A stretch of 63,222 bases of DNA, filler included, from Stramenopiles sp. TOSAG23-2 (taxonomy: Eukaryota), in NCBI GenBank assembly GCA_900128395.1. It is 2 parts of 2 records of this genome, joined end to end, with 100 filler letters (N's around TTAATTAATTAA, not from the genome) between each part and the next. Parts side by side here need not be neighbours in the genome. Positions count along the whole stretch, not along the records: positions 31,742 to 63,222 come from LT649370.1; 1 more part is not named here. The stretch is one strand, 5' to 3'. How positions within the stretch are numbered: position 1 is the first letter of the stretch; every line of letters starts with the position of its first letter. Positions 8,601 through 63,222 of the stretch are shown here, piece after piece. Under the pieces are notes generated by a model, which did no database searches, was not told the origin of the DNA, and worked only from the letters and a program-made list of their open reading frames with translations. Position numbers and translations under genes: made by a program.

Positions 8601-11600
8601 AACTTTCGTTAAATAGAAATAGGATGGGTTCTCTTGCATTGATAACGCCATTAGATCCTCCAAAGAAGCGGACAGACAATGACGAGGACTGGGTGCAACA
8701 AAAAGTTGGTGATTTTGGTTTGTTATGGTTCAATAAAATTACAGGAGAATGTCGCAGATACAAGCCACCGGCTAGAAAAATAGAAACTAAACTTGATGAG
8801 GATTTAAAAATTGATTTATCAAAATTGAAAAAGCCCGGGCAACATGAAACGTTGGAGTCTGCTTTTGATGGATTATCTAATTTACAGAAACGGGGGAAAT
8901 TAGGGGAAGAAGGCAGAGGAGTTTATGACATACGATTTGATCCGATTGAAGGTTTCCCTTTTTTTGTTAATAATTTGACAAACGAGAAGATAATGGAAAT
9001 GCCATATGAAATAGATAATTTTGGCCGCATTGGAAACATTAAACGTTTGAATTTGTCATTTAATATTTTACATGACATACCAAAAAGTATTGGCAAACTT
9101 CATTACTTAATAGAGCTTATACTCGATCACAATAAATTGACGGTACTTCCAATTGAAATCCAAGGTTTATTTCGTTTGAAAACATTGTCCGTGGTAGACA
9201 ATCGTTTAAAAGAAATTCCATGCCAAATACGAAACATGACGAGTTTAGAGCGCTTAGCTATTAACTATAATAAATTGAAAGAGATTCCACCAGATATTGC
9301 AGAGTTGCCTAAATTGACACGATTATGGATTTCCAACAATTACATAACTGTCATTCCTGCACAATACTACAAGTTGACACTGCTCACACAGCTATATGCA
9401 GGGGACAATCCATGGGAGACACCACCGAAGAAGACGGTTCAAAAGGGCATTGTGCCAATTTTACGTGATTGTAAAGAACGTTGGGAAAGATATCGACGAG
9501 GTGGAAGACCACCTGAAGTCACTACTATGAGTGTTGGGATTTTAAGTGAGGTAGTAGTGCCCGAACCTCGTTATCAAGCTAAACTAGAATCTGCGCATAA
9601 ATCTGCAGCAAGGACGAACCAATTACGTCTCCAATGGCTCCAATTAAAAGAAATTCCTCCTCAATTCTATGAATTAACATCTTTAACAGATTTAGGTGTC
9701 ATGTGTAATTTATTGACCACAATTCCTATTACGCTATGTAAAAAATTAACAGCATTGACGACATTGAATATGTACAACAATAACTTAACGGCAATCCCTG
9801 ATGGCATATCTGCTTTGAAAAATTTAAAAAGTTTAAACCTGGAGAGAAATAAAATTGAGAAAATTTCAGGTCGAATTTCATTTTTAAATCAATTGGAATA
9901 TTTGCGCTTAACGGCAAATCGTATTAAAACGTTGCCGGAAAAATTTCATCGGTTGAAAAATATTAAAGAGTTACATTTGGATGTCAATAATTTGCATAAG
10001 TTACCAGATGCAATAGTTGAATTGCCAAAGTTGCGTGTTTTATTATTAATGAAAAATAAATTAAGAAAATTTCCCCCAAACATAATCCAACTGAAACGTT
10101 TAGAAATTTTAAATTTAAATCAAAATTTTCTTTCACGAATGCCTAAAAGTATACACGAGTTACCGCGTTTAAAGGAACTATGTTTAAGTCACAATCGCAT
10201 AGGGAAACTTGCTGAATCGTTTGGATTAGGGGCATTACAATCAACTTTAGCAAAATTATGGTTGTACGGTAATAATGTCGTGGAATTGCCTTACTCCTTT
10301 CGTTTTTTAACAACATTAGACGATCTAAGATTAGAACATAATCCAATGCGTTCACCACCGCCAGCATTAGCGTTAGAAGGTCCAGCACGAATTCGCATTT
10401 ACTTAGAAGATAGAATAACACGAAATACGGCACTGAAAGAACAATTAAATGAAAAATTGTTACGTTTTAATACACGAAATCTTAGTCCACAATCAAGCGA
10501 AGTATTAATTCGTAGTAAATATTTAGCCGCAGATACGACTGTTGGGTATCTTAATGACGATGATTTGTTATACGTCGATAAAATGGTAGATAATTATATT
10601 AATGCAGATTACTACAACTACGAATTGACATTGCAAGAAATAGTTGCGTGGATTGAAGAAACAAAAGAACACAGGAGAATTGAATTCCAGAAAGAATTAT
10701 TGAATAGATTCTTAGTGTGGATCGAATGGGCTGAAATGGAAGAAAATGAACAGCCAACTTTATTAACTGATGACATCTATCGCTTTGACATGGTTCGTAA
10801 ATGGGGGGAGGAGGTACAAGGGCAGCGCAATGCCGAGCCTGTATTTGCTATTGTAACACCAGCAATTTTCAGGAAGGAAAAATGGGTTCCAGCAGACGAT
10901 GGAATTGAAGAAAAACAAGACAATGAAGTGGGGGATGAAGACGATATATACAAGTCTATTGTAGATCGTGGAAACGATCGTATAAAAAGAAGAAATGCGC
11001 ATGAAGAACATCAGCAAATGATTAAACGAGACTACACATTTGAATATGTTTTGACATTTGATTATTCCGAACGTCAATTATTGGAAGCGGCAAAAATGTT
11101 CCTTGGACCATATGGGCCGGTTGCACAAGTGGAAAGTGGAGTTAAATTTCAACTTGATGCGGCAGGTAAAGCACGTGCAAAAATTCGTGCGCAAGAACGT
11201 TTAGAAAAAATGCGAGAGAAAGAAAGGAAACGACGCCATAAAATAAAGATGGAGAGGGAGAAAAAATTGTTAGAGAAGAAAAATGCAAAAGCGGAGAAAA
11301 AAGAGAAAAAGAGGCTTGCAAAAGAAGCGAAGAAGAAGAAGAAAGGTAATAAAGGTGATGAGAACAAAGAGTCTGATGGTGAAGATGTGACAAGTGGAGG
11401 AGAAGATGTTACTAGTGGTGGGGAAGATGCAACTAGCGGTGATGAAGAGAAACAAAAAGAAACAGATGGAGATGCAACCGAGGGAGAGGAGGAGGAAGAA
11501 GAAGAAGAGGAGGAGGATATATTATTAAAAAAGAATGACGCATTGGTTCTATTGAAAACTATATACACGCAAGAGGAAGTAAATCGAAAATATCAAGAGG

Positions 11601-12457
11601 AACAACGTGACAATCGTGCTCAACAGCAAGCAAGAGATGATGTGACGGAATGGTTTACTTTAAAACAAGGTAAAAAAATGCAAAAGTTGGAATACAAAAA
11701 GCGTAAGAAATATTCAATAAAACGGGTAAGCGTAGTGAAAAAGGCTATTAGAAATTCAAAGAGAGAATTGAAAGAGGCAGAAAAAGAATATAAATACATC
11801 ATGTCCAGAAGCCAGGCTTACGACGACAATCCTGCAGCATTTGAAAACCACAGATTTAACACTATTCAAGAAAGAGATGCGATGGTCATGGATGCTAATT
11901 TAGGTATGAATAAGCTAACTGAGACTCTAGAGCAATATAAAGATAATTTGGAAGAAGTTATTTTGTTAAGCAAACGTAAGAAAAAAGAAATTGAAGAAGA
12001 ATTATATTTCGAGTTATTGGAAAAATATGCAAGGGTGGCGCGTGAAAATGTTATTGATGACGGTAGAGTTTATGCACGAGATCGCAAATTGAGGAGGCCA
12101 TGGGATGGACGAAATGGTAAATTGTATAAACAGTGGTTAAGAGAACAAGCAGATCTGATGGCATTGATCACTGGTGGTGGTGGAGATGATACCGACTCTG
12201 ACTCTTCCTCAGGTGATACACCTCGTGATTTATTTGGTTTCAAAGTCAAAGTGGATCCTCTTGAAACTAAATTTGAATGGGATAAATACGTTGATCCATT
12301 GGAGAAAGAAATGAAAGAGAAAGCTAGGTTGGCAAAAATTGCAAAGAAGAAGGAAAAAGCAGAAAGGCGTGCGTTGGCAGAAGCAGCTGGAGAAGACTTT
12401 GATGAAAGTAGCAGTAGTGAGGATGAAGATGATGATGATGAAGATATTGAAGATTAA
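5666..12457 (+). CDS. Giant leucine-rich repeat protein (2263 aa) with RP(G/S)T-repeat disordered N-terminus, WW-like inserts and coiled-coil/acidic C-terminus
   Basis: Many LxxLxLxxNxLxxLP repeats (e.g. LHTVRLSGNKLTTIP, LIELILDHNKLTVLP); repeated SRPGT/RPxTA motifs at the N-terminus; uninterrupted 6.8-kb ORF. Confidence 0.9.
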   Translation: MFPSITPKKGSDEDVDKEKKEKKENSNSNNINKTNEDFESFSISKINNNDNNDISRPNTSGSMGAMSDNNNSRPSTRENNMRRDGNSRPSTSDNNGDNSLGFVEGNLNFFPPRPGTADSGYFEDDNESESHSRPGTSGSMTFSRPVTRENDITNSRPGTREGDDNNSRPSTREGFGLDNYDNRSEYYNDSEDGNNSRPGTSGSMNFFPPRPGTADSMDWNNEVGQNIRPRTSDTFRRPDTADRLRSDFRPDSADTYGQLSRPGTTEGQFIQERRPGTSETFRRPNTADIIRTGVRPGTADTFYTDEQSSIGGSSRPQTAATIRPMDQQQMQQNQIPKKHIRPVTAALDGGYNKNNNNDNNIQQQSQFNTNDRNKKPVGILKKKRPQTAMVKSHIPMSVVADAKRSVDNKKMRPRTAKFNLSGKPPTGKSRPTSSAAGTKQNHAGSRPRQKIKKRPISGTTPLPKEADPLKNTGPKIIITKSPKKIDFRPSKLLKDEERIGGFGKRPYDLTEREKRKVKEMAAIGKTVKRKAQKLRNTNKLRVSRDPYAVKDAKDFFEELSRPQSAASQMTSRSRPRSPSPIVPHPRGGKVLPRPATASIMAQIRKEAEDDEDNNPWEVNLSSSVPIPRTAARATSPPTDAQRRPWVPEKKSMPEGWKPKNPRPWSTDETLTRNGVNRGSILLADGRPHTVGSLPRPTKILSYNEAYDVSQSHSEARKIIKMQHKLVDEDQHRMYEDWVLDKADLALTKRNVKSWGTKGPGVTENPVVRAIKKTDLREKKKKKKGTHMRSPQREKRPHTVTGATGLKGERRKMVYKYKDEQTYHAALLDSYRTGELEILWKGLQQIPRRIAFNTLLLSMHHLHTVRLSGNKLTTIPSWYFTTLHCTTELNIGNNRLKKLPEALGLMHQLVKFACPQNRITYMPESFTKLTNLTQLKAAGNGLSMLPKRIGHLYKLRIVRLEDNNLRTLPGDFQKLVKLQELSLNRNRMGSLALITPLDPPKKRTDNDEDWVQQKVGDFGLLWFNKITGECRRYKPPARKIETKLDEDLKIDLSKLKKPGQHETLESAFDGLSNLQKRGKLGEEGRGVYDIRFDPIEGFPFFVNNLTNEKIMEMPYEIDNFGRIGNIKRLNLSFNILHDIPKSIGKLHYLIELILDHNKLTVLPIEIQGLFRLKTLSVVDNRLKEIPCQIRNMTSLERLAINYNKLKEIPPDIAELPKLTRLWISNNYITVIPAQYYKLTLLTQLYAGDNPWETPPKKTVQKGIVPILRDCKERWERYRRGGRPPEVTTMSVGILSEVVVPEPRYQAKLESAHKSAARTNQLRLQWLQLKEIPPQFYELTSLTDLGVMCNLLTTIPITLCKKLTALTTLNMYNNNLTAIPDGISALKNLKSLNLERNKIEKISGRISFLNQLEYLRLTANRIKTLPEKFHRLKNIKELHLDVNNLHKLPDAIVELPKLRVLLLMKNKLRKFPPNIIQLKRLEILNLNQNFLSRMPKSIHELPRLKELCLSHNRIGKLAESFGLGALQSTLAKLWLYGNNVVELPYSFRFLTTLDDLRLEHNPMRSPPPALALEGPARIRIYLEDRITRNTALKEQLNEKLLRFNTRNLSPQSSEVLIRSKYLAADTTVGYLNDDDLLYVDKMVDNYINADYYNYELTLQEIVAWIEETKEHRRIEFQKELLNRFLVWIEWAEMEENEQPTLLTDDIYRFDMVRKWGEEVQGQRNAEPVFAIVTPAIFRKEKWVPADDGIEEKQDNEVGDEDDIYKSIVDRGNDRIKRRNAHEEHQQMIKRDYTFEYVLTFDYSERQLLEAAKMFLGPYGPVAQVESGVKFQLDAAGKARAKIRAQERLEKMREKERKRRHKIKMEREKKLLEKKNAKAEKKEKKRLAKEAKKKKKGNKGDENKESDGEDVTSGGEDVTSGGEDATSGDEEKQKETDGDATEGEEEEEEEEEEDILLKKNDALVLLKTIYTQEEVNRKYQEEQRDNRAQQQARDDVTEWFTLKQGKKMQKLEYKKRKKYSIKRVSVVKKAIRNSKRELKEAEKEYKYIMSRSQAYDDNPAAFENHRFNTIQERDAMVMDANLGMNKLTETLEQYKDNLEEVILLSKRKKKEIEEELYFELLEKYARVARENVIDDGRVYARDRKLRRPWDGRNGKLYKQWLREQADLMALITGGGGDDTDSDSSSGDTPRDLFGFKVKVDPLETKFEWDKYVDPLEKEMKEKARLAKIAKKKEKAERRALAEAAGEDFDESSSSEDEDDDDEDIED

Positions 12458-14713: not shown

Positions 14714-16738
14714 ATGCCAAGTGGTAACAACGAATTTTCATTATTACAAAACGCAAATAATAATAGTGACAGCGGAAATAGAAAGGTAACGTCTACCTCT
14801 TTAAATATGGTATCCGATACTGATGCATCTTCCAGGAATGTTTCAGGATTTGAGCATACGGCAATTGAAGTGCCAAAATCAGAGGCACCAGGGACACGGT
14901 GCATTGATTTTAAATTACTATGGGCATATACTGGGCCTGGTTGGTTAATGTCTATTGCCTACATAGATCCTGGCAATCTTGAAGCGGACTTACAGTCAGG
15001 GGCATATGCGGGGATGCAACTACTATGGATGTTATTTTGGGCAACTGTTGCTGGTTTGTTGTTGCAAATCTTAGCGTTACGCTTAGGCGTAGTGACCGGT
15101 AAAAACCTTGCACAAGTTTGCAGGGAAAGATACTCAAGACCTACATCATTTATATTATGGATCATGACGGAATTAGCTATTATTGGTTCCGATATACAAG
15201 AAGTGGTTGGCAGTGCAATTGCATTTAAAATATTATTTGGTTGGAAATTATGGGTAGGATGTGTTGTGACAGGACTTGATACTTTCACGTTTCTCCTATT
15301 ACATGTATTAGGTACAAGAGCCTTAGAGGCCTTTTTCACTTCACTTATTTTTATTATGTTGGTTTGTTTTGTGATTAATTTTGCTGGTGCAGATCCACAA
15401 TGGTTAGGTGGCATGAGTGATGATGGTGGTGGTATTTTATTTGGCACGGCTGTGCCAACTGTTGATGATTACGCGCTTGTTCAAGCCGTTGGAATATTAG
15501 GTGCAGTGATTATGCCACATAATATATATTTACATTCAGCACTGGTAACTAGTCGCAAAATCAATCGCCGTGATCCAAAGCAAATTGAATTAGCAAATAA
15601 ATATTTCTCTATTGAAGGTAGTGTTGCACTTTTCGTCTCTTTTTTAATTAATGGTGCGGTAGTCGCGGTGTTTTCACGTGGTTTTTTTAATCGAAATCAA
15701 TGCGCACGACCAGGTTGGGATACACAAACAGGATTAGTAGAGGGGAATGTGATCATAAATGGCAGTAATGTTAATTTGGCTTGTTATCCTGGGCCAGAAC
15801 GCGACGGCTGTCATATCAGTTTACAAACAGGAGAATATTTAAGTTGTGTAACACCGTTAGGTTTGGAAGGTAAATGTTGTGGTATAGGTTTACATAATGC
15901 TGGTACGGCATTAGAAGGTTTTCTTGGTAAAAGCGCTAAATTCGTGTGGGCAATCGGATTATTAGCAGCTGGACAAAGTTCAACCATGACTGGTACGTTT
16001 GCTGGACAATTTGTTATGGAAGGTTTTTTAAATTGGAAAGTCAGTCCATGGATACGGGTTATGATCACACGCACTGTAGCAATTGGTCCCGCAATTGCAG
16101 TGGCGATCATTTCATCATCTAATGCTACTGCTGGTGATGTCTTAAATGAATGGTTAAATGTTTTGCAAAGTGTACAGTTGCCATTCGCTGTGTTACCTGT
16201 TTTACATTTCACTTCAGATTCAAGAGTGATGGGTGAATTTGTTAATCGTGGTCCAGTAAAAGTCGTGTGTTGGTTTTTAGCTGCTCTCGTTATAGTTATT
16301 AATTTTTATTTAGTTACAACATTTGTGACTGCGCCAGATTCGTAAGTTTGCGCCTCCCTTTATATGAACTTGAAAACTTACATATACGTATTTATTTATA
16401 TTTATATATTAATATATATATTCAAAATATCTAACAAAACACCCTTTTTTTTATATATATAACACAGGCCAACACCACAAACTCCACTTTTTTTCATGTT
16501 CGTAATTCTTGTAGGAGTGTTATATTTGACATTTATATTTTATGTTATTAAAGAAGATTTGCAAGAGTTTTGGAAATTGATAAGACGAAGCATGGGTCAA
16601 AATGATACTTTTGATGATAGCTTAAATCTATTGAAGGAAGATAGTAATGAAGGTGATAGTAATATTTATTATGAAAATTTAGATAGTAATAGTAACATCG
16701 TTGATGATTACGGTGCAATAAATAGTGATGAAGTTTAA
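14714..16738 (+). CDS. NRAMP: NRAMP/SLC11 divalent metal transporter, two exons (14714-16341, 16468-16738)
   Basis: GPGWLMSIAYIDPGN, IMPHNIYLHS and AAGQSSTMTGTFAGQFVMEGFL signatures. Splicing GTAAGT(16342)...ACAG(16467) joins in frame to the 16496 ORF, which supplies the last TM helix. Confidence 0.95.
16342..16467 (+). other. Spliceosomal GT-AG intron (126 nt) in NRAMP
   Basis: GTAAGT donor, CTAAC branch-point-like motif near 16431, T-tract and CAG acceptor; removal restores the frame (..PDS-PTPQTPLFFMFVIL..). Confidence 0.9.
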
Positions 16739-17910: not shown

Positions 17911-19494
17911 TTAAAATTTCGGCAAATTAGGCGGAGGGCATAAACTAATGTCATATGCATTTGGACCTGGTGTTTCTGAGGCATTATGTATTGTCCATTC
18001 CAAATCTGATTTTGGTCTTGCACTACTAAAACGACCCCCACGTAAGCGACTTGCAACATCTTTATCGGGTGAATATTGATTAGGGCCTGGAGTTTGACTA
18101 GCATTTAAAATGATCCAATCAATATCTGACTTTGGGTTTGCATCAGAAATTTTAATTGCACCAGCTGTATTTGGACGAGTGTAATCGTCATTAATTTTAT
18201 AATAATTTGGACCTGGCGTTTCTGCACTTCGTAGCATCAAAATTTCAGTATCAGTTTTTGGTTTAGCTGTTGAAATTCTTCCACCTTTCATCCTATCTGG
18301 CACATCTGCAAATCCATATTGATTTGGACCAGGTGTTTGACTGGCCCTATATTGTATCAGCTCAATTTCTGATTTTGGTCTACTTTCATTAAATTTACCA
18401 CCAGACATACCGTATGTTCCAGAATATTTTGCCATGTCATATTGATTTGGCCCAGGTGTCTCTGCTGCTCTGATCATTTTAAGATCAATATCACTTAATG
18501 GATTTGCGTCACTAATACGAATTCCACCTTGTCCACTACCAAATTGTGGAAGCTTATATTGTCCCGGGCCTGGTGTTTCTGCCGCTCTCAACATTTTTAA
18601 TTCTATATCTGTTTTTGGGAAGGACGTACTAAATCTACCACCGCCGTCTGCAAGGGTAGATGGAATAGAATATTGATTAGGGCCGGGAGTGCGGCTTGCA
18701 CGAAGCATAATAATTTCGGTGGATGTCATTGGTTTTGCTGTACTAAAGCGTCCACCCCCCATTTTACTATAATCGTGTGCGACATTGTATTGATTTGGCC
18801 CAGGTGTCTCTGCTGCTCTGATCATTTTAAGATCAATATCACTTAATGGATTTGCGTCACTAATACGAATTCCACCTTTTCCACTACCAAATTGTGGAAG
18901 CTTATATTGTCCCGGGCCTGGTGTTTCTGCCGCTCTCAACATTTTTATTTCGATATCACTTTTCGGTCTAGCATTTGAGAATCTACCTCCACCAGGTTTA
19001 CTCCAACGCCCAGTAGCGCTGGATGGTTGGACATGGTATTTACTTGGTTTTTTCTTTTGCCTAGGTTTTGATAAACGATTGATTATATCCATATTTATAG
19101 GTGCGTACTTTTTTGGTGATTTTCGAACTGGTGGGCCACGTTTCCCCCTTAGACTTTGTGATGTGGTTGGTCGTCTGTCATATAACCTACTGCTTCCACT
19201 ACCTGCAGTTCTGGTTTTTGCCCTTAAACTTTTTGCAGATGCCGACTTCGATGGTTGTGACCTTGTCTTTATAGGAGAAGCATACTTTGATGGCCTTTTA
19301 TTTGCTGCTGTGGTCCTCGGTCTACTATTTGCATTTCTGTCATTAATCTGTTTTCTACTTGGTTTTGCCTTCTTAGTTTTATTTAGTGGTTCTTCGTCTT
19401 CAAAAAAATTCTTTAAAAATGCTTTTTTCTCTTGATCTGCGTTTGTTGCCTCATCTAACTTATTTTTCAAATCAACTTCACGCTTATCCGACAT
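17911..19494 (-). CDS. STPG/SHIPPO (ODF3-like) PGP-repeat flagellar protein
   Basis: About nine TPGP(N/G)xY repeats spaced by GGRFSxAxPKSDIE units. Confidence 0.85.
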   Translation of the reverse strand: MSDKREVDLKNKLDEATNADQEKKAFLKNFFEDEEPLNKTKKAKPSRKQINDRNANSRPRTTAANKRPSKYASPIKTRSQPSKSASAKSLRAKTRTAGSGSSRLYDRRPTTSQSLRGKRGPPVRKSPKKYAPINMDIINRLSKPRQKKKPSKYHVQPSSATGRWSKPGGGRFSNARPKSDIEIKMLRAAETPGPGQYKLPQFGSGKGGIRISDANPLSDIDLKMIRAAETPGPNQYNVAHDYSKMGGGRFSTAKPMTSTEIIMLRASRTPGPNQYSIPSTLADGGGRFSTSFPKTDIELKMLRAAETPGPGQYKLPQFGSGQGGIRISDANPLSDIDLKMIRAAETPGPNQYDMAKYSGTYGMSGGKFNESRPKSEIELIQYRASQTPGPNQYGFADVPDRMKGGRISTAKPKTDTEILMLRSAETPGPNYYKINDDYTRPNTAGAIKISDANPKSDIDWIILNASQTPGPNQYSPDKDVASRLRGGRFSSARPKSDLEWTIHNASETPGPNAYDISLCPPPNLPKF

Positions 19495-20623: not shown

Positions 20624-20656
20624 TTCTTGTCGACACAAATAGTCTCCTTTATAACA

Positions 20657-23600
20657 ATGAGACGCCGTGATCCGCTATTGAATCCCCGAGATTATGGCCC
20701 GGAGTCTAAATTTAGAAAACCAAATGGCAATGCTGTCTTTACAAGTTTTTTAGACGGTACGTTTACTCCACAAAGTGCTTTTGTATATAGAAGAAAAAAG
20801 ATAAGACGAAAAGATGATCCTTTGCCGGAAGTTTACACTATGTCGTCACCTTACAAAAAGCGTCGTCCTCGTCCAAAATCTGCCTCATCGTCAACAAGTA
20901 GTATGAAGAGAAGAAGAGCTAGTTTGAAAAATAGAACACCTACAGACTCTCCCTATAGTACACCAAGAGATTTAGGAAAAAGTAGAAGAGGCAGTAGGCC
21001 AAAAACCGCTCCGTTAAATAAGAATAGCAGTAGACGCGGTAGTAACAGTCAAATAAGTCCAAGAACACAAAAATCTGAATTTGCTATCCCTTCTAAAAGA
21101 GAGGAGTCCAAGGATGAGGCGATTGCACGCAGAAGGAAAGAAATTTTAATGAAAAAAAAAGAGCGTGTCCTTCACCTTCGAAGTATGAAACGAGTTAGTC
21201 GTAATCGCCCTGGTATTATAAATGATGATAATGAAGAAAAATACAGTTTGCCTGTCATGGTTGGAAATTATTCTCGTCCAGATGTTGTAAATTATCCCTC
21301 AACCAAAGAGAAAGCAACGCCTAAGCATTTTGAAAATGACGATGGTGGTGCAGAATATAATTCCCAAGCACAACAAAATGATATTGGAAAGCGAACAATA
21401 AATCGTGTCAAGACGACATTTACAATAAAAGAGTTGTTTACATCAATTATTCCAAAACGTATTCTTTATTCAGATTTACTTTATACTATACCATTGATGG
21501 AATTAGTTTTAGATCACTGGCCTATAGACGATCATTTTTTACACATGCTTGCGGCAAATAAATCTGTACATAAAAACTTGACATTACTACATATTGGATA
21601 TTGCCATCGAGTCACTGACAAAGGGTTAAAAGAATTAGATGGTTGTAGAAATATTGAATCATTTGATATTTCAGGCATACAGAATATAACAGATTATGGA
21701 GTGACGATGTTTGTAAAAACACATTCGCGTATAAAATCTTTTAATTTGTCTCATTGTCAAAGCATCACTGGCGTAGGGGTGCAAGCCTTAATCATGGGTT
21801 GTCGAAATTTAGATACTATTACTATGATTAATTGCAATGGGCTGACCGATAGTGCCATGCAAGCGATTGCTCATCATGCAAAAATTCCATATGCAGCTAA
21901 AATGAAACGAGTAAATTTAAAAGGTTGCACATCTGTTAGTGACGCTGGGATGATGCAGTTGATAACATCTTTGCGCGGGCATGTGGAATACCTAAATATA
22001 TGTGGGGCTAAAGGTACAACAGATATAGCATTATCGGCGTTGCATCACCATGGATCTGCATCGTTTAAGTCATTGCGTTATATTGATGTTTCGAATATGC
22101 GTTTAGGTGATTCAGGCTTAGAATGGATTTCAGAAGGCTGCGGACCAGGTTTGTTGCAACTTAATTTGCGAAATTGCAATTATATAAGTGACACGGGAAT
22201 TGAAACATTAGCTGGACGATGCACCAATTTAACGAATTTAAATCTATCCAAGTGCCATTTATTAACAGATCAATCTATGATTGCTCTTGCAAAATATTTG
22301 AATGGCCACAACATTGATGATACCGGGCACGATAACCATGCTGAAAATGAAAATGTTCGTTTAACTACGCTTTCAAAAGCTGTCCTGACTGGCGAAGTAA
22401 GTAGCGTCAAAGTTTTACTTGATGCTGGTGCAAATATTAATCATAAAGATGGAAATTTGAAATTTCCGTTATGGCATGCTTGCGAACTGGGTTATTTAGA
22501 CGTCGCTCTGTTTTTAGTACAACAAGGGGCAGATATCAGTCAAATTTTTAAGCCAACAGGGCAAACCTGTTTGCACATTGCAGCATTTTATGGACATATG
22601 GATATTGTTATGTTATTAGTTGGCAATGGTATAAGTATAAATAAAGAAGACAATCAAGGGCTGACCCCGCTGTCTGCTGCTGCTACAGAAGGAAAAATTG
22701 ATATTGTCAACTTTTTAAGTAAAAAAGGAGCAATTGGTGACCCCGGTCCAGGGCTTCAAGTATTGGACATAACAGACTGCAAATATATTTCGGATGAAGG
22801 CATTCAAGCAATAGCTACTTGCCAACGTTTGAACACTTTAACTATGGTTGGTGTCGAGCGACTAACAAAACGAGGTTTAAAAGCTTTGGCTTATTCTGCT
22901 TCTGGGAAATCTATGACGTCGTTAAACGTTTCTGGTCGTTATAATGTTTCAAATTCTGGGCTGAACGTTTTCTATGGGATAGCCAGTATAACAACACCAG
23001 GAGCTAGGGCTTTGTCGCATATGATACATTTAACAAAATTAAATTTATGTGGTTTACATCAAATTGGCAATGGCGCAATTAAATCTATTGCAACACATTG
23101 TAAGCATCTTGTAGACTTGAATATAAGTGGATGTGGCCATGTTGAAAACCATAGTATTGCTGTATTATCTCAAACTTGCACAGAGTTAAAAATTTTAAAT
23201 CTTTCAGGCGTTGTGAAATTAGGTGATGAAGGCTTAATCAGTATAAGTAAAGGATTGCGTTCTTTAGAATATTTAAATTTATTTCGTTGTGAAGCTATAA
23301 GCGATAATGGCTTAAAAAAACTTGCATCTTGCACCAATTTAACAGAGTTAAATATTCGTTGTTGTAAATGGATATCTGATGTTTCCGTGTGTGAATTAGC
23401 AAAAGGACTTCCCATCTTAAAATCTTTAAATGTGTCTAATAACTTAGATATAACAAATCGCTCGGTGGAATGCCTGGTCGATAACATGAATTCTCTTCAA
23501 AAGTTTGTTTGCAATGGTTGTCCTGAAATAGAGCCGCCCTGCTTGCAATACGCTGCACTTAAATTGCCATTGTTACAACTTGCTACAATGCGAACAGCTG

Positions 23601-26600
23601 GCTTCATAGGTTTGAGACCGTTAGCTAAAGGGGGTTACATGCGTACAAGAGAAGTCTTTTTAAAGAATGAAGAAAGGTACAATGACGCAGCACTTCAAAT
23701 ACAATTTCATTGGAATTTATATTGTCGTAGGCAGGCCGGAAAAGCTGAGTTAGACATGCGCAGGCTTCATTTTCGAGCTTTTGAACATAAAAATGCTCTT
23801 AAGATTCAAACCATATGGCGTATGTATCATTATGGGAAATTAGGGATTATCAAACGAAAAGAAGAATTGAAGCGGGAGCATGAGAAATTAGTAAAAGCGG
23901 TATGTATGGTTCAACGAAATTATCGCGGCCATCTTGGGTACTTTAAATTTTTAGGTAAAAAATCGCAAAGAAAACGTGAGACTATTGCTGCAATTAAAAT
24001 CCAAAAGATGTTGCGAGGGCATTTTGGTCGCTTATATGCAAAACAATATCGTGATGAATTAACCAAAGCATGTGTACGAGTTCAAAGATCATTTCGCAAT
24101 CATTCTGATCGCATACATAGGATTCTTGCTAGAGAAGCAAAATTGTACCGTAAAGAAATGGAACGGAAAGAAAGCACACTTATTCAGACACAATGGCGTC
24201 GATATTATGCTATAAAATCTGTTCAAGCCAAGCGAGCCAAGATGAATAATGCAGCTGTGACCATTCAAAAACACTATCGCTGCTACTATAAAAGAGAATG
24301 GTATAAAACTTGGAGAAAGAAGCTAATAGATGCTGTAAGACTAGTTCAAAATTGCTTTCGCTGTCATGAAGCAAGGTTTCATTTGCATATTAAGAAACAA
24401 GCCAAAAAATTTAGAGATAGCTTAGAAAAAGATGCATCTACAATTATTCAGAAATACTTAAGAAGGTTTTTTCAAAGAAATACTCTCAATTACCATCAAA
24501 GCAGGCGTAACGCGGCAAAGATGTTGCAAAAGCATTGGCGCGGAAGATTGGAAAAAAAGCGCATTCGATTTGACTATTTATATAAACGTTATAATAAACG
24601 TGAAGAGGAAAAACTAGTGAAAAAAGCAAAACAATTGTATGATGTATGGAGGGAGGAGGAAAAATCAACACCACAAGGTAGACGCATCAATATGATAATG
24701 CGAACAGGTGCTGCAATGATATTGCAAAGAACCAGACGCACAATTCTATGGAATAGGAGGCAAATGGCCATACAACGTTACAATCAATTTTGCAAAGAAT
24801 CGGATGCAGCTACTGTCATTCAAGCGGCTATGAGAATGTTTTTAGGCGTCCGACATTATCGTGAATTCGCATGGAGAGCAGATGAAGCTTCATATAATAT
24901 TTCAAGGTGGTTTAAAAGTTTAAAAATTAAATGGGCATTTCGCTTGAAACTTAAAGAAGCCCGAGCCATTGCTCGAGAAAAGCAGATACAGGAGAAAAAA
25001 CGCTTGATCCAACGATCTTGGGATAGGAGATATGACGCATTGCAACATAGAAGATGCGTTAGAAGTGCTAAGATTATCCAAAAACATTATCGAATACATG
25101 TAGACTATGAAAAGAGGATGGCAGAAGCACGCAGAAAATTAGCCGAGGAAAAAGCAGAGGAGATAAGGGTTCAGGAAGCAAGAGAGCGGGTAGCACAAGA
25201 ACGAATTGAGAGGCGGACCTTGAAAGGTAAATTAAAACGATTAAAAAATCACCTAAGCGATCCTGAGAAAGTAAAACAAACTATAAAAAAATATACAAAT
25301 CCTCATATCATATTGGATAAAGTTGGAAACGCTATAAAATATGTGGAAGAATTAAACGACGAGAAAAAAAGGTTTGAACGAGACCAAGAGGAGTTAGGTG
25401 CAATGGTCTACTCTATTCAATCGAGGCAAAAATCTATGGTATCTCAAAGTGGGTGCATTGATATACACGTAACAGTAGGTGAGACGAATATGGATAACTT
25501 CTTAGAAACGCAAAATGCTCATATGAAAGAAGGCCGTCCATACTTTGAGCGTGTTGGTATAGACCTTGGCTCAAAAGCATATAAAATGTCTCAAGGGCAA
25601 AAAGTGTCTCGGCCTAAATTTATATATTTATGGATGAAAATTGGAAAACAGAGGACGGCACATATTATAACAAACATAACGATCGTTCCTTCTCCGAAGT
25701 TGCACAATAAACATGAAGCAGAATTACGTAGATTGGATCTACGCAAGCAAGGGTTTCAAGTTATATGGCATCATAGACTAAAATTTGAACTTCATCTACG
25801 CCGTGATGGTCATAGCTTAATACGAAAAATTACTACTTGTGCGGATAAGAGAAAGAAGCAGCGATTGGTATCTAATTCCTGGGAGCAAATTGAACCTTCT
25901 TTTGATACGTTTGACGACCAATATGATGATGGTTCGAAATTATTCCTTTATCACACAATGCCGCCAAAAAATGCTAAAGCTCAAGAGGCCCAATACAAGG
26001 CCATTATGCCAGATGATGAATTGGATACGGCAAATATTTCAATGGATGCTCATAGCCGTGCACTGCTTTTAGAACAAGTTGAATATGTGGGTTATTCAGC
26101 TGATGATATAGACTATTTACGTGGTGTTTTTCATCTTATGGATGATGACGATAGCGGTACTGTCGATGTTGATGAATTTTTCAATTATATTAAGCAAAAT
26201 CGTACACCAATTTCAAATCATATATTTGAATTTCATGGCCATGAATTTGGTCATAGTGTCGAAGCAGAGGTTCTTGATTTTGGCATGTTTGTCAAGGTCA
26301 TCTCGCATTTTTGTTTATTTGACACTAATTTAATGGCTAGATTTTTTTGGAAAATAATTGACCCTGAAAACATGTTTGAGGCGGAAGCAAAGGATGTTTT
26401 GCGACTAATAAATATGTTGAGTGAACAATACCCTGGTATTATTAGTACAAATGCAATGAAATTAGCAAAATCTAGGTTGAAGTTAGAATATCCTGAAAAT
26501 ATTGTGAAATATAAAGACTTTTACGTGTTCGTAACTAAAATGCCTACGTTTTTATATCCAGTATTTAGGTTACAGCATTCGATACAAGAGAAATTTTTAG

Positions 26601-26758
26601 GACAAAAATATTGGGAAGATAAGAAAATTATGATGGAAAGAGCCAGACAGATGGTTAAAAAACAAAGAGATTCTGGAAACGATCCAAATATGAGACAAAC
26701 TAGAGCAGGGGATGATAAGAAAGTTTTTGTGGACGCAAAAAAGAAGAAGAAACGTTAA
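20657..26758 (+). CDS. Large protein with cysteine-containing (FBXL/AMN1-type) LRRs, ankyrin repeats, IQ motifs and C-terminal EF-hand
   Basis: LxxLNLxxCxxITD repeats; TGQTCLHIAAFYGHMDIVMLLV and GLTPLSAAATEGKIDIVNFL ankyrins; IQKMLRGHFGR-type IQ motifs; MDDDDSGTVDVDEF EF-hand. First ATG at 20657. Confidence 0.9.
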   Translation: MRRRDPLLNPRDYGPESKFRKPNGNAVFTSFLDGTFTPQSAFVYRRKKIRRKDDPLPEVYTMSSPYKKRRPRPKSASSSTSSMKRRRASLKNRTPTDSPYSTPRDLGKSRRGSRPKTAPLNKNSSRRGSNSQISPRTQKSEFAIPSKREESKDEAIARRRKEILMKKKERVLHLRSMKRVSRNRPGIINDDNEEKYSLPVMVGNYSRPDVVNYPSTKEKATPKHFENDDGGAEYNSQAQQNDIGKRTINRVKTTFTIKELFTSIIPKRILYSDLLYTIPLMELVLDHWPIDDHFLHMLAANKSVHKNLTLLHIGYCHRVTDKGLKELDGCRNIESFDISGIQNITDYGVTMFVKTHSRIKSFNLSHCQSITGVGVQALIMGCRNLDTITMINCNGLTDSAMQAIAHHAKIPYAAKMKRVNLKGCTSVSDAGMMQLITSLRGHVEYLNICGAKGTTDIALSALHHHGSASFKSLRYIDVSNMRLGDSGLEWISEGCGPGLLQLNLRNCNYISDTGIETLAGRCTNLTNLNLSKCHLLTDQSMIALAKYLNGHNIDDTGHDNHAENENVRLTTLSKAVLTGEVSSVKVLLDAGANINHKDGNLKFPLWHACELGYLDVALFLVQQGADISQIFKPTGQTCLHIAAFYGHMDIVMLLVGNGISINKEDNQGLTPLSAAATEGKIDIVNFLSKKGAIGDPGPGLQVLDITDCKYISDEGIQAIATCQRLNTLTMVGVERLTKRGLKALAYSASGKSMTSLNVSGRYNVSNSGLNVFYGIASITTPGARALSHMIHLTKLNLCGLHQIGNGAIKSIATHCKHLVDLNISGCGHVENHSIAVLSQTCTELKILNLSGVVKLGDEGLISISKGLRSLEYLNLFRCEAISDNGLKKLASCTNLTELNIRCCKWISDVSVCELAKGLPILKSLNVSNNLDITNRSVECLVDNMNSLQKFVCNGCPEIEPPCLQYAALKLPLLQLATMRTAGFIGLRPLAKGGYMRTREVFLKNEERYNDAALQIQFHWNLYCRRQAGKAELDMRRLHFRAFEHKNALKIQTIWRMYHYGKLGIIKRKEELKREHEKLVKAVCMVQRNYRGHLGYFKFLGKKSQRKRETIAAIKIQKMLRGHFGRLYAKQYRDELTKACVRVQRSFRNHSDRIHRILAREAKLYRKEMERKESTLIQTQWRRYYAIKSVQAKRAKMNNAAVTIQKHYRCYYKREWYKTWRKKLIDAVRLVQNCFRCHEARFHLHIKKQAKKFRDSLEKDASTIIQKYLRRFFQRNTLNYHQSRRNAAKMLQKHWRGRLEKKRIRFDYLYKRYNKREEEKLVKKAKQLYDVWREEEKSTPQGRRINMIMRTGAAMILQRTRRTILWNRRQMAIQRYNQFCKESDAATVIQAAMRMFLGVRHYREFAWRADEASYNISRWFKSLKIKWAFRLKLKEARAIAREKQIQEKKRLIQRSWDRRYDALQHRRCVRSAKIIQKHYRIHVDYEKRMAEARRKLAEEKAEEIRVQEARERVAQERIERRTLKGKLKRLKNHLSDPEKVKQTIKKYTNPHIILDKVGNAIKYVEELNDEKKRFERDQEELGAMVYSIQSRQKSMVSQSGCIDIHVTVGETNMDNFLETQNAHMKEGRPYFERVGIDLGSKAYKMSQGQKVSRPKFIYLWMKIGKQRTAHIITNITIVPSPKLHNKHEAELRRLDLRKQGFQVIWHHRLKFELHLRRDGHSLIRKITTCADKRKKQRLVSNSWEQIEPSFDTFDDQYDDGSKLFLYHTMPPKNAKAQEAQYKAIMPDDELDTANISMDAHSRALLLEQVEYVGYSADDIDYLRGVFHLMDDDDSGTVDVDEFFNYIKQNRTPISNHIFEFHGHEFGHSVEAEVLDFGMFVKVISHFCLFDTNLMARFFWKIIDPENMFEAEAKDVLRLINMLSEQYPGIISTNAMKLAKSRLKLEYPENIVKYKDFYVFVTKMPTFLYPVFRLQHSIQEKFLGQKYWEDKKIMMERARQMVKKQRDSGNDPNMRQTRAGDDKKVFVDAKKKKKR

Positions 26759-56010: not shown

Positions 56011-56107
56011 GCTACCTTAACCTGGCCGGCTGGGCCGGCCAGGTTAAGGTAGCTAGCTCTAGCTAGAGCTAGCTCTAACTACCTGGTATCTGGTATCTAC
56101 AGGTAGT
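56011..56107. repeat. Cluster of three adjacent inverted repeats
   Basis: 20-bp perfect arms with a TGG loop (56011-56053), a 24-bp perfect palindrome (56051-56074) and ACTACCTG...CAGGTAGT (56078-56107). Confidence 0.9.
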
Positions 56108-56132
56108 GCTTTTATTACCAGTGGATGGAAAA

Positions 56133-56699
56133 ATGCGATGTGGTAGCTGGACGGAAGAAGAAGAAAAGTATGCTGGAGATCTCATTAAATGCTTTAACGA
56201 TGGCATTTTAGACAATGTTGCAGATGTGTATAATACAGTGCAAAGTTTACTTGCAGACAAGTTACTGTGCAAGCTACAACGAATAAAGGATAAATTTGCT
56301 GGTAAATACTGGAAGCTATATGTTGCCAGTAATAAGTCCAAATTCTCAGAGATTGTATTGGCTTGCCGCAGAGAAATTCTAGAAAAATCACGTGTAGATT
56401 TTTTTGAGTCAGTTAAGGCAGAGAGGAAGGCCAAGAAGGCAGCAGCGGCAGAGAGGAAGGCCAAGAAGGCAGCAGCGGCAGAGAGGCAGTCCAAGATGGC
56501 AGCAGCGGCAGAGAGGAAGGCCAAGAAGGCAGCAGCGGCAGAGAAGGCAGCAGCAGCAGAGAGGAAGGCCAAGATGGCAGCAGCGGCCTATTGTTGCCTT
56601 GTAGATGAACTGCAGCGGCGGCCTTCGATGACTTGCGACCTCCTTGTGCAGCAGTTGCTATGCTATCATCATCAACAACAATTATTCTTCAACATATAA
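56133..56699 (+). CDS. Stramenopile-type Myb-like domain protein with KAAAAERKAK repeats (possibly degenerate)
   Basis: RCGSWTEEEEKYAGDLIKCFNDGIL...LADKLLCKLQRIKDKFAG resembles the RxGKWTxEEExY...LxCxxxRIxKKF family recalled from stramenopile/algal proteomes. Confidence 0.55.
   Translation: MRCGSWTEEEEKYAGDLIKCFNDGILDNVADVYNTVQSLLADKLLCKLQRIKDKFAGKYWKLYVASNKSKFSEIVLACRREILEKSRVDFFESVKAERKAKKAAAAERKAKKAAAAERQSKMAAAAERKAKKAAAAEKAAAAERKAKMAAAAYCCLVDELQRRPSMTCDLLVQQLLCYHHQQQLFFNI
56415..56588 (+). repeat. GC-rich 30-bp coding tandem repeat
   Basis: AAGGCAGCAGCGGCAGAGAGGAAGGCCAAG unit, about 5-6 copies with variants. Confidence 0.9.
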
Positions 56700-56801: not shown

Positions 56802-59699
56802 TCATGGAGGAATAACTATTGGATTGTTAACTGTTTTGTACGACTTGAATGTTCTCCCTTCACCCTTGTTATAGTTACGGGCTGTGAAAGTTTTTCCAGG
56901 TATCACCTCGCCATCCAAGTTTAAAACGCCCTTAATCTTACGGTCTTTGCTAAACCATTCTAGTTCTGCTCCACCTACATGCGTATTATCTATGTATAGG
57001 ATATCGCCCTCTTTGATGCTAATTACATCAAATCCTCCCTTATAATCTAGTGGTACTTTAGCATCCCCTGTCTTACCTTTGGGGGGTGCTTGTAAAGGCA
57101 TTTTGTCTTTATGAGTTTCCAAGTCTATATCCCCGATAAGCTTCTTCAATTCATCTAAATTATTCTTATCAACTTGAAAACCATGCCAAATACCTTTACC
57201 TGATACGTCTACCTTCACGATTTGTGCTTTTCCACTTGATCGTGATCGTAATGCATCTGCAACTTTCCCATCGAAAAAGCCCGAGTCGCGGAACACGCTA
57301 GGTTTAAAATTTGAGCGAGTTACTGTTATTTTTGGTTTTGGTTTTTTTCTTTTTTTACCAGTACTACCAGTAATACCTTTGTCTAGTAAAACTGTTTGTT
57401 CTTTTGGCGTTATGCCAGCTTCACTCATAATTTTTGACTTTGCCTCAATTTGAACTTTTGTAAATTTACCAAACTCATCTGGTGTTCCAGTTATATGTGC
57501 TTCGTAAACTGCTACTTTTTTTTCACTTGTTAATGGGCCAATTTCATTCTCTGCGCGTTTAATTGTCGTTTCAAAATCTGGCTTAGCTTCGTATTTTCCT
57601 AATTTTTTCTTAAATTTCTTTTCTTTCCAGGTCTTGAAATTATCCTTACTACCACTATTCTTAAATTCTACTTCTAACTCTTGACGACGAATCTTTCTAT
57701 GTTTCCTAAAATTCTTCATTCTTTTTCCAAACGGGTTCCGGTTTTTTAAGTAGTTTTTTAACCTTCCAGAGAGAGAGAATCGATGCTTTGGCCTTAACAA
57801 TCCATCTTTTTTTGCCCTTGCATTTTCTAAATTTTGATATTTTTTCAACCAATCAGATTTGGTAAGAGTAGGTTTACCATTTAATCTCTTGGTATTAATA
57901 TATTTATTCCAAGCTCGTTTCTCGGCTGTGCTAAATGGGCGAACAATACTTGTTCCCATATTCTTTAAACCATCCGCGACACCAGACGTAATTCCTTTCG
58001 TTTTCATAGAACTATACAAATTTTTAATTGACGTTGATACACCCTTCTTAGCATTCTTTGCAGCACTTGCTAGTGTCTCCATATCCCCAATAAAACTGCC
58101 AGAACGTATAACTTTATACTTTTTAAATAAACTTTTTGCACCTGGAGTCTTCGTAATTTCTGCAAAATCACCTAAACCACCTAAAAGAATCACTTCGACA
58201 ATTGCACCTATCACTCCAGCACTTTTTTCAATTAATTGCTTCTTACATGCACGCTTACATGTACCAGCCCACATTTTCTTTATTTGCATGTAACTTTCAC
58301 AGACACTATTTGTCATATAAGCAAACGATTCATATAATCCCCACAGACCGCCAAGCAGTTTAATTAATATTGGAATTACTACAAATCCAGCAGCCACAAA
58401 GGCTATATTTAATAGAACCATCCCCCCAATCATAAGTAGCACCATTCCAACCATTTTGGTCGCTGGGCAAGCCATAGCAAATTCCCAACCTGCTTTTAAC
58501 GTTGAAATTAACGCGTTTAATAAACCTCTCACTGCATGTATTAAATGCTTCCGGCCTTTGGATGTCCATATTTTTCTATGAATTCTTTTTATTACATTCT
58601 GCCAAACGTGCGTCATATTGCGCACGACATATTTAATTTTTTCACTAATATCAGAACGATCTTGACATTTATCATCTTGCCACTGTTCATGCAAATCTGT
58701 TGCCATTCCTCCTAAAAAGCCATCAACTAAGCCAAAAAAAAAAGCTTTATCAACATCTTGGCTTGTCAATGCTTCTTCAATGCTTCTCTCATTCTCCATT
58801 ACTTTACTAGTATCAACAACTTCATCAGAAAAAAAACATTGCTTCAATTTAGCAATTGTACCTTTAGAAACACATTCGCACTCATTTATCCTGGTGGTAT
58901 CACACATACATTCACCACGGCATGGATTCTCTGGATCTGGTTGACAATGAGCATTTTTGCCGCATGTTCTCAAAATCGTTGTACGTTTACATTCACCTAA
59001 CGGTTTTGTCGTGGATGACGGACAACATAAAATATCAGATCCACCATCACATTTACCTTTGACAATCGGTTTGGAACACTTATCTAGATTGGTATCTATA
59101 CAAGTACCTTCATGGTTATCACATGGTACCCCCTCAGCTTTATTGTACGCGAACGATTTTATATAGTTTACGCCGCCTTTTATAGCACCCCATACAGCTC
59201 TGTTCGTTGATTTTCCTGACGTTGCTTTCTCCAACAATATCGATATATCATCCCGATGTTTTTTTAAGTCAGATGGTGATAAAATTGTATTTTCAGGTAT
59301 CTCCTTTAAATTTTGCAAATCATCCATGATAGGACTATGTTCAAATGAAAATCCTTCTTTTAAACTTTTATGTATTTCCTTTATTTCATACGTTGCATAT
59401 GCTTCAACTGACATACCCTGCATATCTTTAACTTCTAGAAAACTTAAACTATTCTCGTCAATGTTGTCTACGTTTTTTTCTAACGTTTTGACAATATTTT
59501 CCAAACTATCAGTAGACATTAAATTGTGAAACATATCATCATGCATATGTAAATGGTTTTGCATCATAACACCATGCTTAATTTGATTTGTAATGGCAAT
59601 ACATTCATGACTGATTAATAATATCAAAAAGCATAAACCTATTGTTTGTAAACGATTTTTGGTGGACTTTTTCATCTTTTTCTTTCTGGACGTATTCAC
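56802..59699 (-). CDS. Secreted polymorphic-toxin-like protein with a putative C-terminal colicin E3/CdiA-type (BECR) RNase domain
   Basis: Signal peptide, Cys-rich modules, long hydrophobic hairpin, basic linker and C-terminal KEGDILYIDNTHVGGAELEWFSKDRKIKGVLNLDG motif. Confidence 0.75.
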   Translation of the reverse strand: MNTSRKKKMKKSTKNRLQTIGLCFLILLISHECIAITNQIKHGVMMQNHLHMHDDMFHNLMSTDSLENIVKTLEKNVDNIDENSLSFLEVKDMQGMSVEAYATYEIKEIHKSLKEGFSFEHSPIMDDLQNLKEIPENTILSPSDLKKHRDDISILLEKATSGKSTNRAVWGAIKGGVNYIKSFAYNKAEGVPCDNHEGTCIDTNLDKCSKPIVKGKCDGGSDILCCPSSTTKPLGECKRTTILRTCGKNAHCQPDPENPCRGECMCDTTRINECECVSKGTIAKLKQCFFSDEVVDTSKVMENERSIEEALTSQDVDKAFFFGLVDGFLGGMATDLHEQWQDDKCQDRSDISEKIKYVVRNMTHVWQNVIKRIHRKIWTSKGRKHLIHAVRGLLNALISTLKAGWEFAMACPATKMVGMVLLMIGGMVLLNIAFVAAGFVVIPILIKLLGGLWGLYESFAYMTNSVCESYMQIKKMWAGTCKRACKKQLIEKSAGVIGAIVEVILLGGLGDFAEITKTPGAKSLFKKYKVIRSGSFIGDMETLASAAKNAKKGVSTSIKNLYSSMKTKGITSGVADGLKNMGTSIVRPFSTAEKRAWNKYINTKRLNGKPTLTKSDWLKKYQNLENARAKKDGLLRPKHRFSLSGRLKNYLKNRNPFGKRMKNFRKHRKIRRQELEVEFKNSGSKDNFKTWKEKKFKKKLGKYEAKPDFETTIKRAENEIGPLTSEKKVAVYEAHITGTPDEFGKFTKVQIEAKSKIMSEAGITPKEQTVLLDKGITGSTGKKRKKPKPKITVTRSNFKPSVFRDSGFFDGKVADALRSRSSGKAQIVKVDVSGKGIWHGFQVDKNNLDELKKLIGDIDLETHKDKMPLQAPPKGKTGDAKVPLDYKGGFDVISIKEGDILYIDNTHVGGAELEWFSKDRKIKGVLNLDGEVIPGKTFTARNYNKGEGRTFKSYKTVNNPIVIPP

Positions 59700-62624: not shown

Positions 62625-62872
62625 AAAAGAAAAATATTTTTTAAAATATTGGCTCAGCAGTCAACTGTATTCTTTTGAGAAGTACGAACGTAGGAATTGT
62701 CATGTGTAGGAATACAAATTAAAATTACGCGTTACTTTTATACGAAAAGTATATACGAGACGTAACAATATATATAATATTTTTTTTAGTATGGTTCGTA
62801 TTTTTTTAAATAATATTTTTTAAAATATTTTAATTTATTATGCACATAACTTATTTTTTAATTTACTCATGA

Positions 62873-63220
62873 TCAAAAAGCTCCAAAACCACTGCTGCTA
62901 TTGCCAAATCCACTCGTGTTTGTACCAAATCCACCTCCAGTGTTGCTACTGCCAAATCCACCACCAGTATTGCTACTGCCAAATCCACCACCTCCTCCTT
63001 GATTTCCAAATCCATTATTAGTGGTATTAGTATTCGTTTGACCAAAGCCTCCACCATTACCACCACCGAATGCATTCGTCGTATTACTAGTGCCAAATGC
63101 ATTAGTCGTGCTACTGCCAAATCCACCACCATTATTACTACTGCCAAATCCATTATTAGGGGCAGTGTTTGTTTGACCAAATCCACCACCTCCTCCTTGA
63201 TTTCCAAATCCATTATTAGT
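62873..63220 (-). CDS. C-terminal FG-repeat (GFG, Gly/Asn/Ser-rich) tail of a gene starting beyond the window; nucleoporin-like
   Basis: Frame from 63220 reads TNNGFGNQGGGGGFGQTN...SSSGFGAF* with the stop at 62873-62875; the ORF-track call 62863-63213 is in a different frame. Confidence 0.8.
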   Translation of the reverse strand, partial: TNNGFGNQGGGGGFGQTNTAPNNGFGSSNNGGGFGSSTTNAFGTSNTTNAFGGGNGGGFGQTNTNTTNNGFGNQGGGGGFGSSNTGGGFGSSNTGGGFGTNTSGFGNSSSGFGAF

Positions 63221-63222
63221 GG

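Follow-up and report, generated by a model that had tools for sequence, protein, structure and literature searches.

Can a eukaryote arm an exported carrier protein with exchangeable C-terminal modules, as bacteria do with their polymorphic toxins? This question is raised by a minus-strand gene at positions 56802-59699 of a 63,222-nucleotide stretch of DNA from Stramenopiles sp. TOSAG23-2 (GenBank assembly GCA_900128395.1). The whole stretch, hereafter the window, consists of two parts of two records joined end to end with 100 filler letters between them, and positions 31,742 to 63,222 come from LT649370.1. An initial annotation, made from the sequence alone, had described the gene product as a eukaryotic secreted protein built like a bacterial polymorphic toxin, with a colicin E3/CdiA-type ribonuclease (RNase) at its tip. 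The gene was found to belong to a small family whose members share a conserved front part and differ in their tails, and it lies among ordinary eukaryotic housekeeping genes. We tentatively favour the reading that this is a lineage-restricted modular secretory family of an uncultured marine flagellate, in which the present member carries a very divergent E3-like payload that would cleave ribosomal RNA (rRNA).

Conserved carrier and variable C-terminal extensions

Relatives of the protein were collected by a word-based search, which gave four proteins, and by using the aligned conserved part to scan metagenome contigs, which gave seven loci. Two of these loci were the same genes as two of the four proteins, and the comparison set comprised nine relatives. 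Residues 1-559 matched all nine (E 2e-35 to 6e-153) and residues 560-965 matched none of them at E≤0.01. The polymorphic layout proposed in the initial annotation, a conserved carrier with a variable C-terminus, is real, and the C-termini of the relatives differ from one another instead of being invariant. In the relatives the shared N-terminal part spans about 560-590 amino acids; their tails vary in length and content, some with Cys-rich modules and repeated RRRLL-type motifs. Judged from contig names, each assembly holds several family members.

The features of the gene and its product are the following (residues are counted from the GTG codon):

56802..59699, minus strand: whole open reading frame (ORF), stop codon included, 965 codons counted from GTG; the first ATG, at 59675 (M9), gives a product of 957 amino acids
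59595..59675, minus strand: signal-peptide-like leader (residues 9-35), with a basic N-terminus and a hydrophobic core
59430..59444, minus strand: SFLEV (residues 86-90), within the block SFLEV.DM.GMS that is invariant in a four-sequence alignment
59019..59108, minus strand: Cys module G.C.D.....C...CCP (residues 198-227), read by eye and also seen in relative L075
58869..58994, minus strand: six-Cys module like that of epidermal growth factor (EGF-like; residues 236-277), conserved in the family, with a predicted local distance difference test score (pLDDT) of 64-78 over about residues 249-278
58329..58472, minus strand: 48-residue hydrophobic stretch (residues 410-457), Kyte-Doolittle peak 2.72, conserved in the four-sequence alignment
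58155..58226, minus strand: third, weaker hydrophobic segment (residues 492-515), from hydropathy
57330..58019, minus strand: basic, member-specific linker (residues 561-790), K+R 26%, no Cys
57330-57359, minus strand: polybasic GKKRKKPKPK (residues 781-790), at the end of the basic linker
57105..57329, minus strand: small alpha/beta segment of unknown kind (residues 791-865), from low-confidence AlphaFold models
56805..57104, minus strand: C-terminal tip (residues 866-965), candidate E3/CdiA-CT-like domain, from Atlas features, alignments and a model

All the sequence features on which the initial annotation drew (leader, SFLEV, Cys modules, hydrophobic hairpin, basic linker, terminal motif) were recovered. 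Its length of 965 amino acids holds for the frame open from GTG; the ATG at 59675 is probably the eukaryotic start and would give the shorter product. The hydrophobic core of the leader was placed at residues 17-38, and 16 Cys were counted in residues 101-400. The part conserved in the family consists of the leader, the invariant SFLEV.DM.GMS block, the six-Cys EGF-like module, the motif FGFVDGF.GGM, the hydrophobic hairpin and a four-Cys loop. SFLEV is possibly a processing or sorting site, and the hydrophobic stretch 410-457 is long enough to form a helical hairpin.

The leaders of relatives L078 and P0005 are almost identical to that of the gene, and the remainder of these proteins is 28-35% identical; the near-identity covers positions 59527-59675 of the window, L078:130-420 (the first ~95 residues) and residues 1-57 of P0005. 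This pattern points to gene conversion, or to shuffling of an exon-like kind, at the 5' end. One contig of metagenome run X4 fits positions 59527-59655 only, i.e. the leader region. A second X4 contig (2092 nt) shows about 90% likeness between 59655 and 58020 (codon ~560); beyond this point it ceases to fit at the 90% setting, at which an unrelated continuation looks the same as one that is merely more diverged. Both ends of the carrier have probably undergone recombination.

No recognised toxin domain was found with Pfam in the C-termini of P0002-P0005, L074, L076, L078 and L079. The linker resembles that of L076, whose gene runs off its contig, in two short motifs (WSKKYKN, HRFSL), a likeness that is not significant (E above 5). 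Motifs of the RRRLL or RRRRLL type recur around the C-terminal modules of L074, L079, L078, P0003 and P0005, and a Cys-containing terminal module (..F.CS......C.CI...G) is common to L074, L079, P0003 and P0005; they could be processing sites and a second type of payload, respectively.

The hydrophobic segments 410-457 and 492-515 allow a different topology, that of a membrane protein with several passes: a Cys-rich ectodomain would be followed by two or three spans and then by a variable tail, rich in Lys, in the cytosol, and the tip would be an interaction domain. The four Cys between the segments are conserved in the four-sequence alignment and suggest a lumenal loop, and the strongly basic, Cys-free tail that follows fits the positive-inside rule; were the hydrophobic segments to span the membrane stably three times, the tail would end up on the cytosolic side, at odds with a secreted payload. 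Cys-rich modules, however, are also present in the C-terminal extensions of P0005, L074, L078 and L079. One of them, C-terminal to the hydrophobic region in P0005, resembles the module that precedes this region in our protein, which suggests that both sides are lumenal or extracellular. We consider the membrane protein an improbable alternative.

Likeness of the tip to colicin E3-type RNases

Judged by comparison of residues and of language-model features, the tip (residues 866-965) is most likely a very divergent relative of the 'Cytotoxic' domain (PF09000) of colicin E3, pyocin S6 and CdiA-CT, a good lead that we rate a little short of an even chance. When residues 780-965 were submitted to the ESM Atlas, PF09000 and hemagglutinin (CdiA-type) clusters ranked first (0.83/0.81/0.81). 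Residues 866-965 gave the same families first (0.86/0.85/0.84, with 186, 176 and 173 of 256 features shared), and the ten best hits with a family all shared one family. By the Atlas's own statement, 170 or more shared features are seen in nine out of ten true members, vs one to two out of ten chance hits or distant relatives.

The best alignments obtained with Smith-Waterman, HMMER and hhalign agree on a single colinear register (75 columns in hhalign). In the alignments of hhalign, HMMER and MAFFT, which are non-significant, the D, H, E and R columns conserved in the E3 family are occupied by D904, H907, E912/E914 and R949; in E3 itself the catalytic residues are D510/H513/E517/R545. For comparison, an E3-family set of 58 distinct domains from 72 bacterial loci was compiled, together with three divergent members from genome searches (L082, L083, L100). 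The initial annotation had quoted a consensus for E3/CdiA tips that the terminal motif (KEGDILYIDNTHVGGAELEWF...IKGVLNLDG, nt 56910-57014) was said to follow closely. This consensus was not confirmed: the 58 domains read G[KR]IYEWDSQHG.[LV]E.Y...G.HLG.FD..TG, and the tip follows them loosely only. It agrees with 5 of the 16 columns that are at least 90% conserved in the family (D, H, E, G, R), F replaces Y, and its H-to-E spacing is three residues longer owing to an insertion after the His.

Much weighs against this assignment. The tip lacks three features of the family, namely RxRW, the Trp of YEWD and the G.HLG His. In the E3 family, R, R and W of RxRW are each present in 20 of 22 rows, and the second His, that of G.HLG, is kept in every one of the 22 sequences of a broader set, the divergent L082, L083 and L100 included; at this position the tip has T or, in the other register, I. 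In their passages on Tox-ColE3, Zhang et al. 2012 (PMC3482391) describe this second His as conserved throughout the fold and prefer it over H58 as catalytic residue, giving the signature 'R, Dxx+[HK], E, H'. If the tip is an E3 homologue, it is an aberrant one. The Atlas scores lie below the tool's threshold of 0.9, which makes them a lead only, and the tool is uncalibrated for parts of proteins; by its own statement, one in three shuffled proteins obtains a first hit of at least 0.8, and one in three obtains ten consistent hits.

The profile and database searches add to these points. Pfam found no family at E≤10 in the whole protein or in C-terminal pieces (PF09000 cut-off 22 bits; the positive control, cloacin DF13, scores 114 bits), NCBIfam and PDB phmmer searches gave nothing relevant, and full phmmer with residues 780-965 against 1.84 billion representatives gave no true relative. 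When hidden Markov models (HMMs) were run without filters, our own model of the 58 E3 domains gave the tip -0.7 bits, and the broader one, made from 22 sequences, gave 0.1 bits, a score equalled by 318 of 2000 shuffles. A comparison of the tip with the E3 family by hhalign gave a probability of 0.2-0.7% (P 0.08-0.26). In Smith-Waterman alignments with 15 representatives, the maximum score was reached by 260 and the mean by 39 of 1000 shuffles; with the three divergent E3 members, the counts were 115, 251 and 272 of 2000. BLASTP of the tip against cloacin was not significant and chose a different register. Among 401 sampled gammaproteobacterial genomes, 43 gave matches to the tip at E≤1 (best 0.006), which were treated as noise; at one of the 13 loci checked for position, the match lay at the end of an ORF. 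By tblastn against plasmids, seven records were hit (best E 2), no colicin among them. No relative of the tip was found in viral contigs, nor any of the carrier. The family is itself rare, with PF09000 above the cut-off in 3 of 401 Actinomycetota and 3 of 400 Gammaproteobacteria sampled.

A homologue search with the cloacin RNase domain gave near-identical cloacins only and was of no use for a diverse profile. RNase domains 96-100% identical to that of cloacin DF13 were seen on small contigs (loci L002-L004, L035, L038) of assemblies labelled Arthrobacter, Limoniibacter, Pedobacter, Actinomadura and Streptomyces. These contigs look like carry-over of an enterobacterial colicin-type plasmid.

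The initial annotation had also placed colicin E3 among the BECR RNases. The passages of Zhang et al. 2012 (PMC3482391) on Tox-ColE3 give it as a separate all-beta fold and list it from bacteria only, and PF09000 appears without a clan in PMC9990079; with Pfam, the tip matched none of the BECR toxin profiles. Colicin E3 is not a BECR-fold RNase, and the label is mistaken. According to PMC9990079, E3-type cleavage of small-subunit rRNA falls between A1493 and G1494.

Many of these points would equally be expected if the family is real and the tip, a domain specific to the lineage, has nothing to do with E3, the tails being non-enzymatic modules for adhesion, extrusomes or surface variation, and the likeness of the motif being chance in a short Gly/Lys-rich beta-hairpin region. 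The alignment-based E3 tests are all at noise level, the tip has no relative in the database search, the other tails hold no known toxin domain, the family-invariant His and RxRW are missing, and the Atlas readily assigns such first hits to shuffled proteins. Against this stand the agreement of two Atlas queries of different length on the same small family, named in advance by the initial annotation; the higher score of the narrower query, with its 186 of 256 shared features; and the choice of the same register by three alignment programs, with D, H, E and R on conserved columns. An unrelated domain is plausible, if in our view somewhat doubtful.

Structure prediction and repeat-protein matches

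The AlphaFold models were poor: the mean pLDDT was 35 for the tip alone and 44 for the full-length protein with eight aligned rows. Three low-confidence strands were predicted in the tip, at 900-904, 912-916 and 922-926 (ILYID, ELEWF, IKGVL; pLDDT ~47-55), and a Foldseek search of the PDB was without hits at E≤0.001. The comparison of the tip with toxin structures that the initial annotation had called for thus yielded no support. For its E3/CdiA-type RNase as a whole, it is only the Atlas features that point to PF09000, below the threshold of the tool, and the profile, pairwise and structural tests are non-significant or uninformative.

The full-length model is confident only in the EGF-like module and in a helical stretch of the linker, residues 669-778 (57366-57692), where pLDDT reaches 76-86 although no aligned sequence covers it. 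The helical stretch has no match in Pfam or the PDB.

The representative search gave one strong hit, the bacterial protein P0020 (E 3.8e-14, 7 matched stretches, identity 41-45% over about 52 residues). Its repeats are He_PIG (PF05345, 12 stretches, 628 bits), and an HMM of 11 of them gives the tip 13.9 bits, a score reached by none of 2000 shuffles, as would be expected if the tip were an immunoglobulin (Ig)-like He_PIG or cadherin-like domain. P0020, however, is the best of 1.84 billion proteins, so that the shuffle test follows selection; its single stretches reach at most 11.3 bits, and the E-value arises by summing near-identical repeats. The match spans only half a He_PIG unit, the Pfam He_PIG model has no hit on the tip, no other He_PIG protein was found, and no Ig or cadherin family is among the Atlas hits; the likeness does not extend beyond the repeats of P0020 itself. 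The second hit, P0021, likewise a bacterial repeat protein, aligns to another part of the query. We regard an Ig-like tip as very unlikely; P0020 and P0021 were judged to be summed-repeat artefacts and were rejected as relatives of the tip.

Read and contig coverage

Two of the 18 listed runs contain the stretch in full and may both be where it came from. The runs that hold parts of it are labelled marine or seawater metagenome. In another study, an oligo-dT RNA library yielded a contig that covers positions 57526-57788 with no differences, and further RNA-library and DNA contigs overlie parts of the carrier. The member-specific linker thus exists outside the source assembly; an RNA-library contig is no proof of transcription. 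In four runs (X4, X6, X9, X13) no contig covers the tip (56805-57104) or bridges 57789-58019, which is evidence neither for nor against the junction.

This coverage is what might be seen if the junction between carrier and tip were an assembly chimera, or the tip contaminant DNA: the whole stretch is held by two runs that are possibly its source, and the tip and the bridge are bare in the four runs compared. The reading frame, on the other hand, runs open for 2.9 kb, no bacterial relative of the tip came up in the searches, the genes on either side are eukaryotic, and the contig of the other study matches the linker without a difference. The sequence is AT-rich throughout: GC content at third codon positions (GC3) is 0.25-0.35 in the gene (tip 0.35, rest 0.25-0.32) vs 0.17-0.24 in its neighbours. 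With a GC3 of 0.35 the tip is AT-rich like the remainder of the gene, and hence it is not a fragment of a GC-rich contaminant. A chimera is scarcely credible.

Genomic context

The window is AT-rich (GC about 0.27-0.41), with long uninterrupted ORFs densely packed. Those recognised by Pfam encode BMT5-like and SpoU methyltransferases, a Cys/Met pyridoxal phosphate enzyme, a pseudouridine synthase, a multicopper oxidase, an adenylosuccinate lyase, an EF-hand protein, a peroxisomal-type ABCD transporter, an Nramp protein, a SHIPPO-repeat protein, giant proteins with leucine-rich repeats (LRRs) and ankyrin repeats, a Band 7 protein and an actin-like protein. These eukaryotic families around the gene, together with the hydropathy of its leader, bear out the description as a eukaryotic gene with a signal-peptide-like leader. 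An identical copy of the ABCD transporter occurs in metagenome data, and the best named relatives of the transporter are just 31-43% identical.

As the initial annotation had noted, no small immunity ORF follows the gene. The only downstream minus-strand ORF of at least 80 amino acids (56075-56572) is a low-complexity antisense of a plus-strand ORF. Beside the gene no cloacin-type immunity gene was found, nor downstream of it any plausible small ORF on the same strand; by Pfam, the neighbours are BMT5-like, SpoU or without a family. The need for an adjacent immunity gene may lapse if the protein enters the endoplasmic reticulum (ER).

A convergent ORF (56106-56699, plus strand), which contains AAAERKAKK repeats, comes to within 103 nt of the gene's stop codon. 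Short contigs from all metagenome runs stack on its repeat at 56520-56563, a low-complexity effect. At the end of the window, an ORF that runs off it (62863-63222, minus strand) has GFG/FG repeats as in FG nucleoporins. Two uninterrupted ORFs of more than 2000 amino acids (5666-12457 and 20627-26758, plus strand) are rich in LRR, ankyrin and IQ repeats; the Nramp gene lies at 14714-16345 and the SHIPPO-repeat gene at 17911-19494. These giant ORFs, the Nramp protein and the SHIPPO-repeat protein are consistent with a flagellated phagotroph.

Proposed mechanism

In the reading that we favour, that of a secreted carrier with an E3-like payload, the protein would enter the ER co-translationally through its leader. 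The conserved front would be the carrier that all members use for export, and perhaps to insert into membranes, and might be processed near SFLEV. The helical and hydrophobic region may serve storage or membrane insertion, and the unrelated C-terminal extension of each member would be its payload. Here the E3-like payload would be freed at the polybasic site 781-790 and would cut rRNA in prey or competitor cells, and import into the ER would keep it off the producer's own ribosomes. If related to Tox-ColE3, the tip would presumably be of bacterial origin. What the data establish is the family, with its conserved front and variable tails, in a eukaryotic setting; the functional steps of this mechanism are inferred throughout. 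The fuller proposal is a polymorphic toxin system made by a eukaryote, with an ER-exported carrier that has a processing site and a helical hairpin for insertion into membranes, recombined killing modules and one horizontally acquired, strongly diverged E3-type rRNase, directed at bacterial prey or competitors and working without an immunity protein; as a whole we think it rather unlikely.

Comparison with known systems

As in colicin E3, cloacin DF13, pyocin S6 and CdiA-CT(ECL), the candidate domain has about 100 residues and lies at the extreme C-terminus of a modular protein that appears to be exported. In the order of the family columns, the tip has D-x2-H, then E-x-E with an aromatic residue, then a late R, and by language-model features PF09000 is its nearest family. 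Unlike PF09000 proteins, it has no significant profile match, carries a three-residue insertion after the His and lacks the invariant RxRW, Trp and second His; the gene has no neighbouring cloacin-type immunity gene, and its host is a eukaryote, whereas the Tox-ColE3 passages of Zhang et al. 2012 (PMC3482391) name bacteria only.

With the bacterial polymorphic toxins, as outlined by Zhang et al. 2012 (PMC3482391), the family shares a conserved N-terminal part, there devoted to trafficking, and C-terminal modules that are unrelated among relatives. In contrast to them, Pfam found here no RHS or filamentous-haemagglutinin repeats, no HINT or other releasing peptidase and no pre-toxin domain. No immunity gene or downstream cassette lies beside this gene (the flanks of the relatives were not searched), export would use the ER, and the other tails are not known toxins.

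Domesticated amidase effectors are among the bacterial effector domains that eukaryotes have taken up. If the tip is E3-like, the gene would resemble eukaryote-acquired bacterial toxin domains in placing a weapon domain behind its own signal peptide, as in the many examples given by Zhang et al. 2012 and, for cdtB in insects, in PMC8455502. Those cases are single-domain proteins or simple fusions with clear homology, whereas here homology is unproven and the carrier is family-specific, with swapped tails.

A highly conserved leader joined to a hypervariable C-terminal product is also typical of venom-peptide superfamilies such as conotoxins. The leaders of L078 and P0005, near-identical to that of the gene with the rest diverged, recall this arrangement. 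Conotoxins are much smaller than the proteins described here, whose conserved carrier has ~560-590 residues and which belong to a unicellular eukaryote. In a literature search that covered articles without their supplementary files, no eukaryotic E3-type domain and no protist family of such a layout was described, and we judge this to be a new protist family, toxin-like in its layout.

If the tip acts as an rRNase on its eukaryotic carrier, this would mean that the logic of bacterial polymorphic toxins can be recreated by a phagotroph or a competitor through its own secretory pathway, and the gene would make a testable case of the killing or digestion of bacteria by uncultured marine protists. 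Even without RNase activity, the family is a clear case of recombination-driven diversity of tails behind a near-identical leader, in a little-known eukaryotic lineage.

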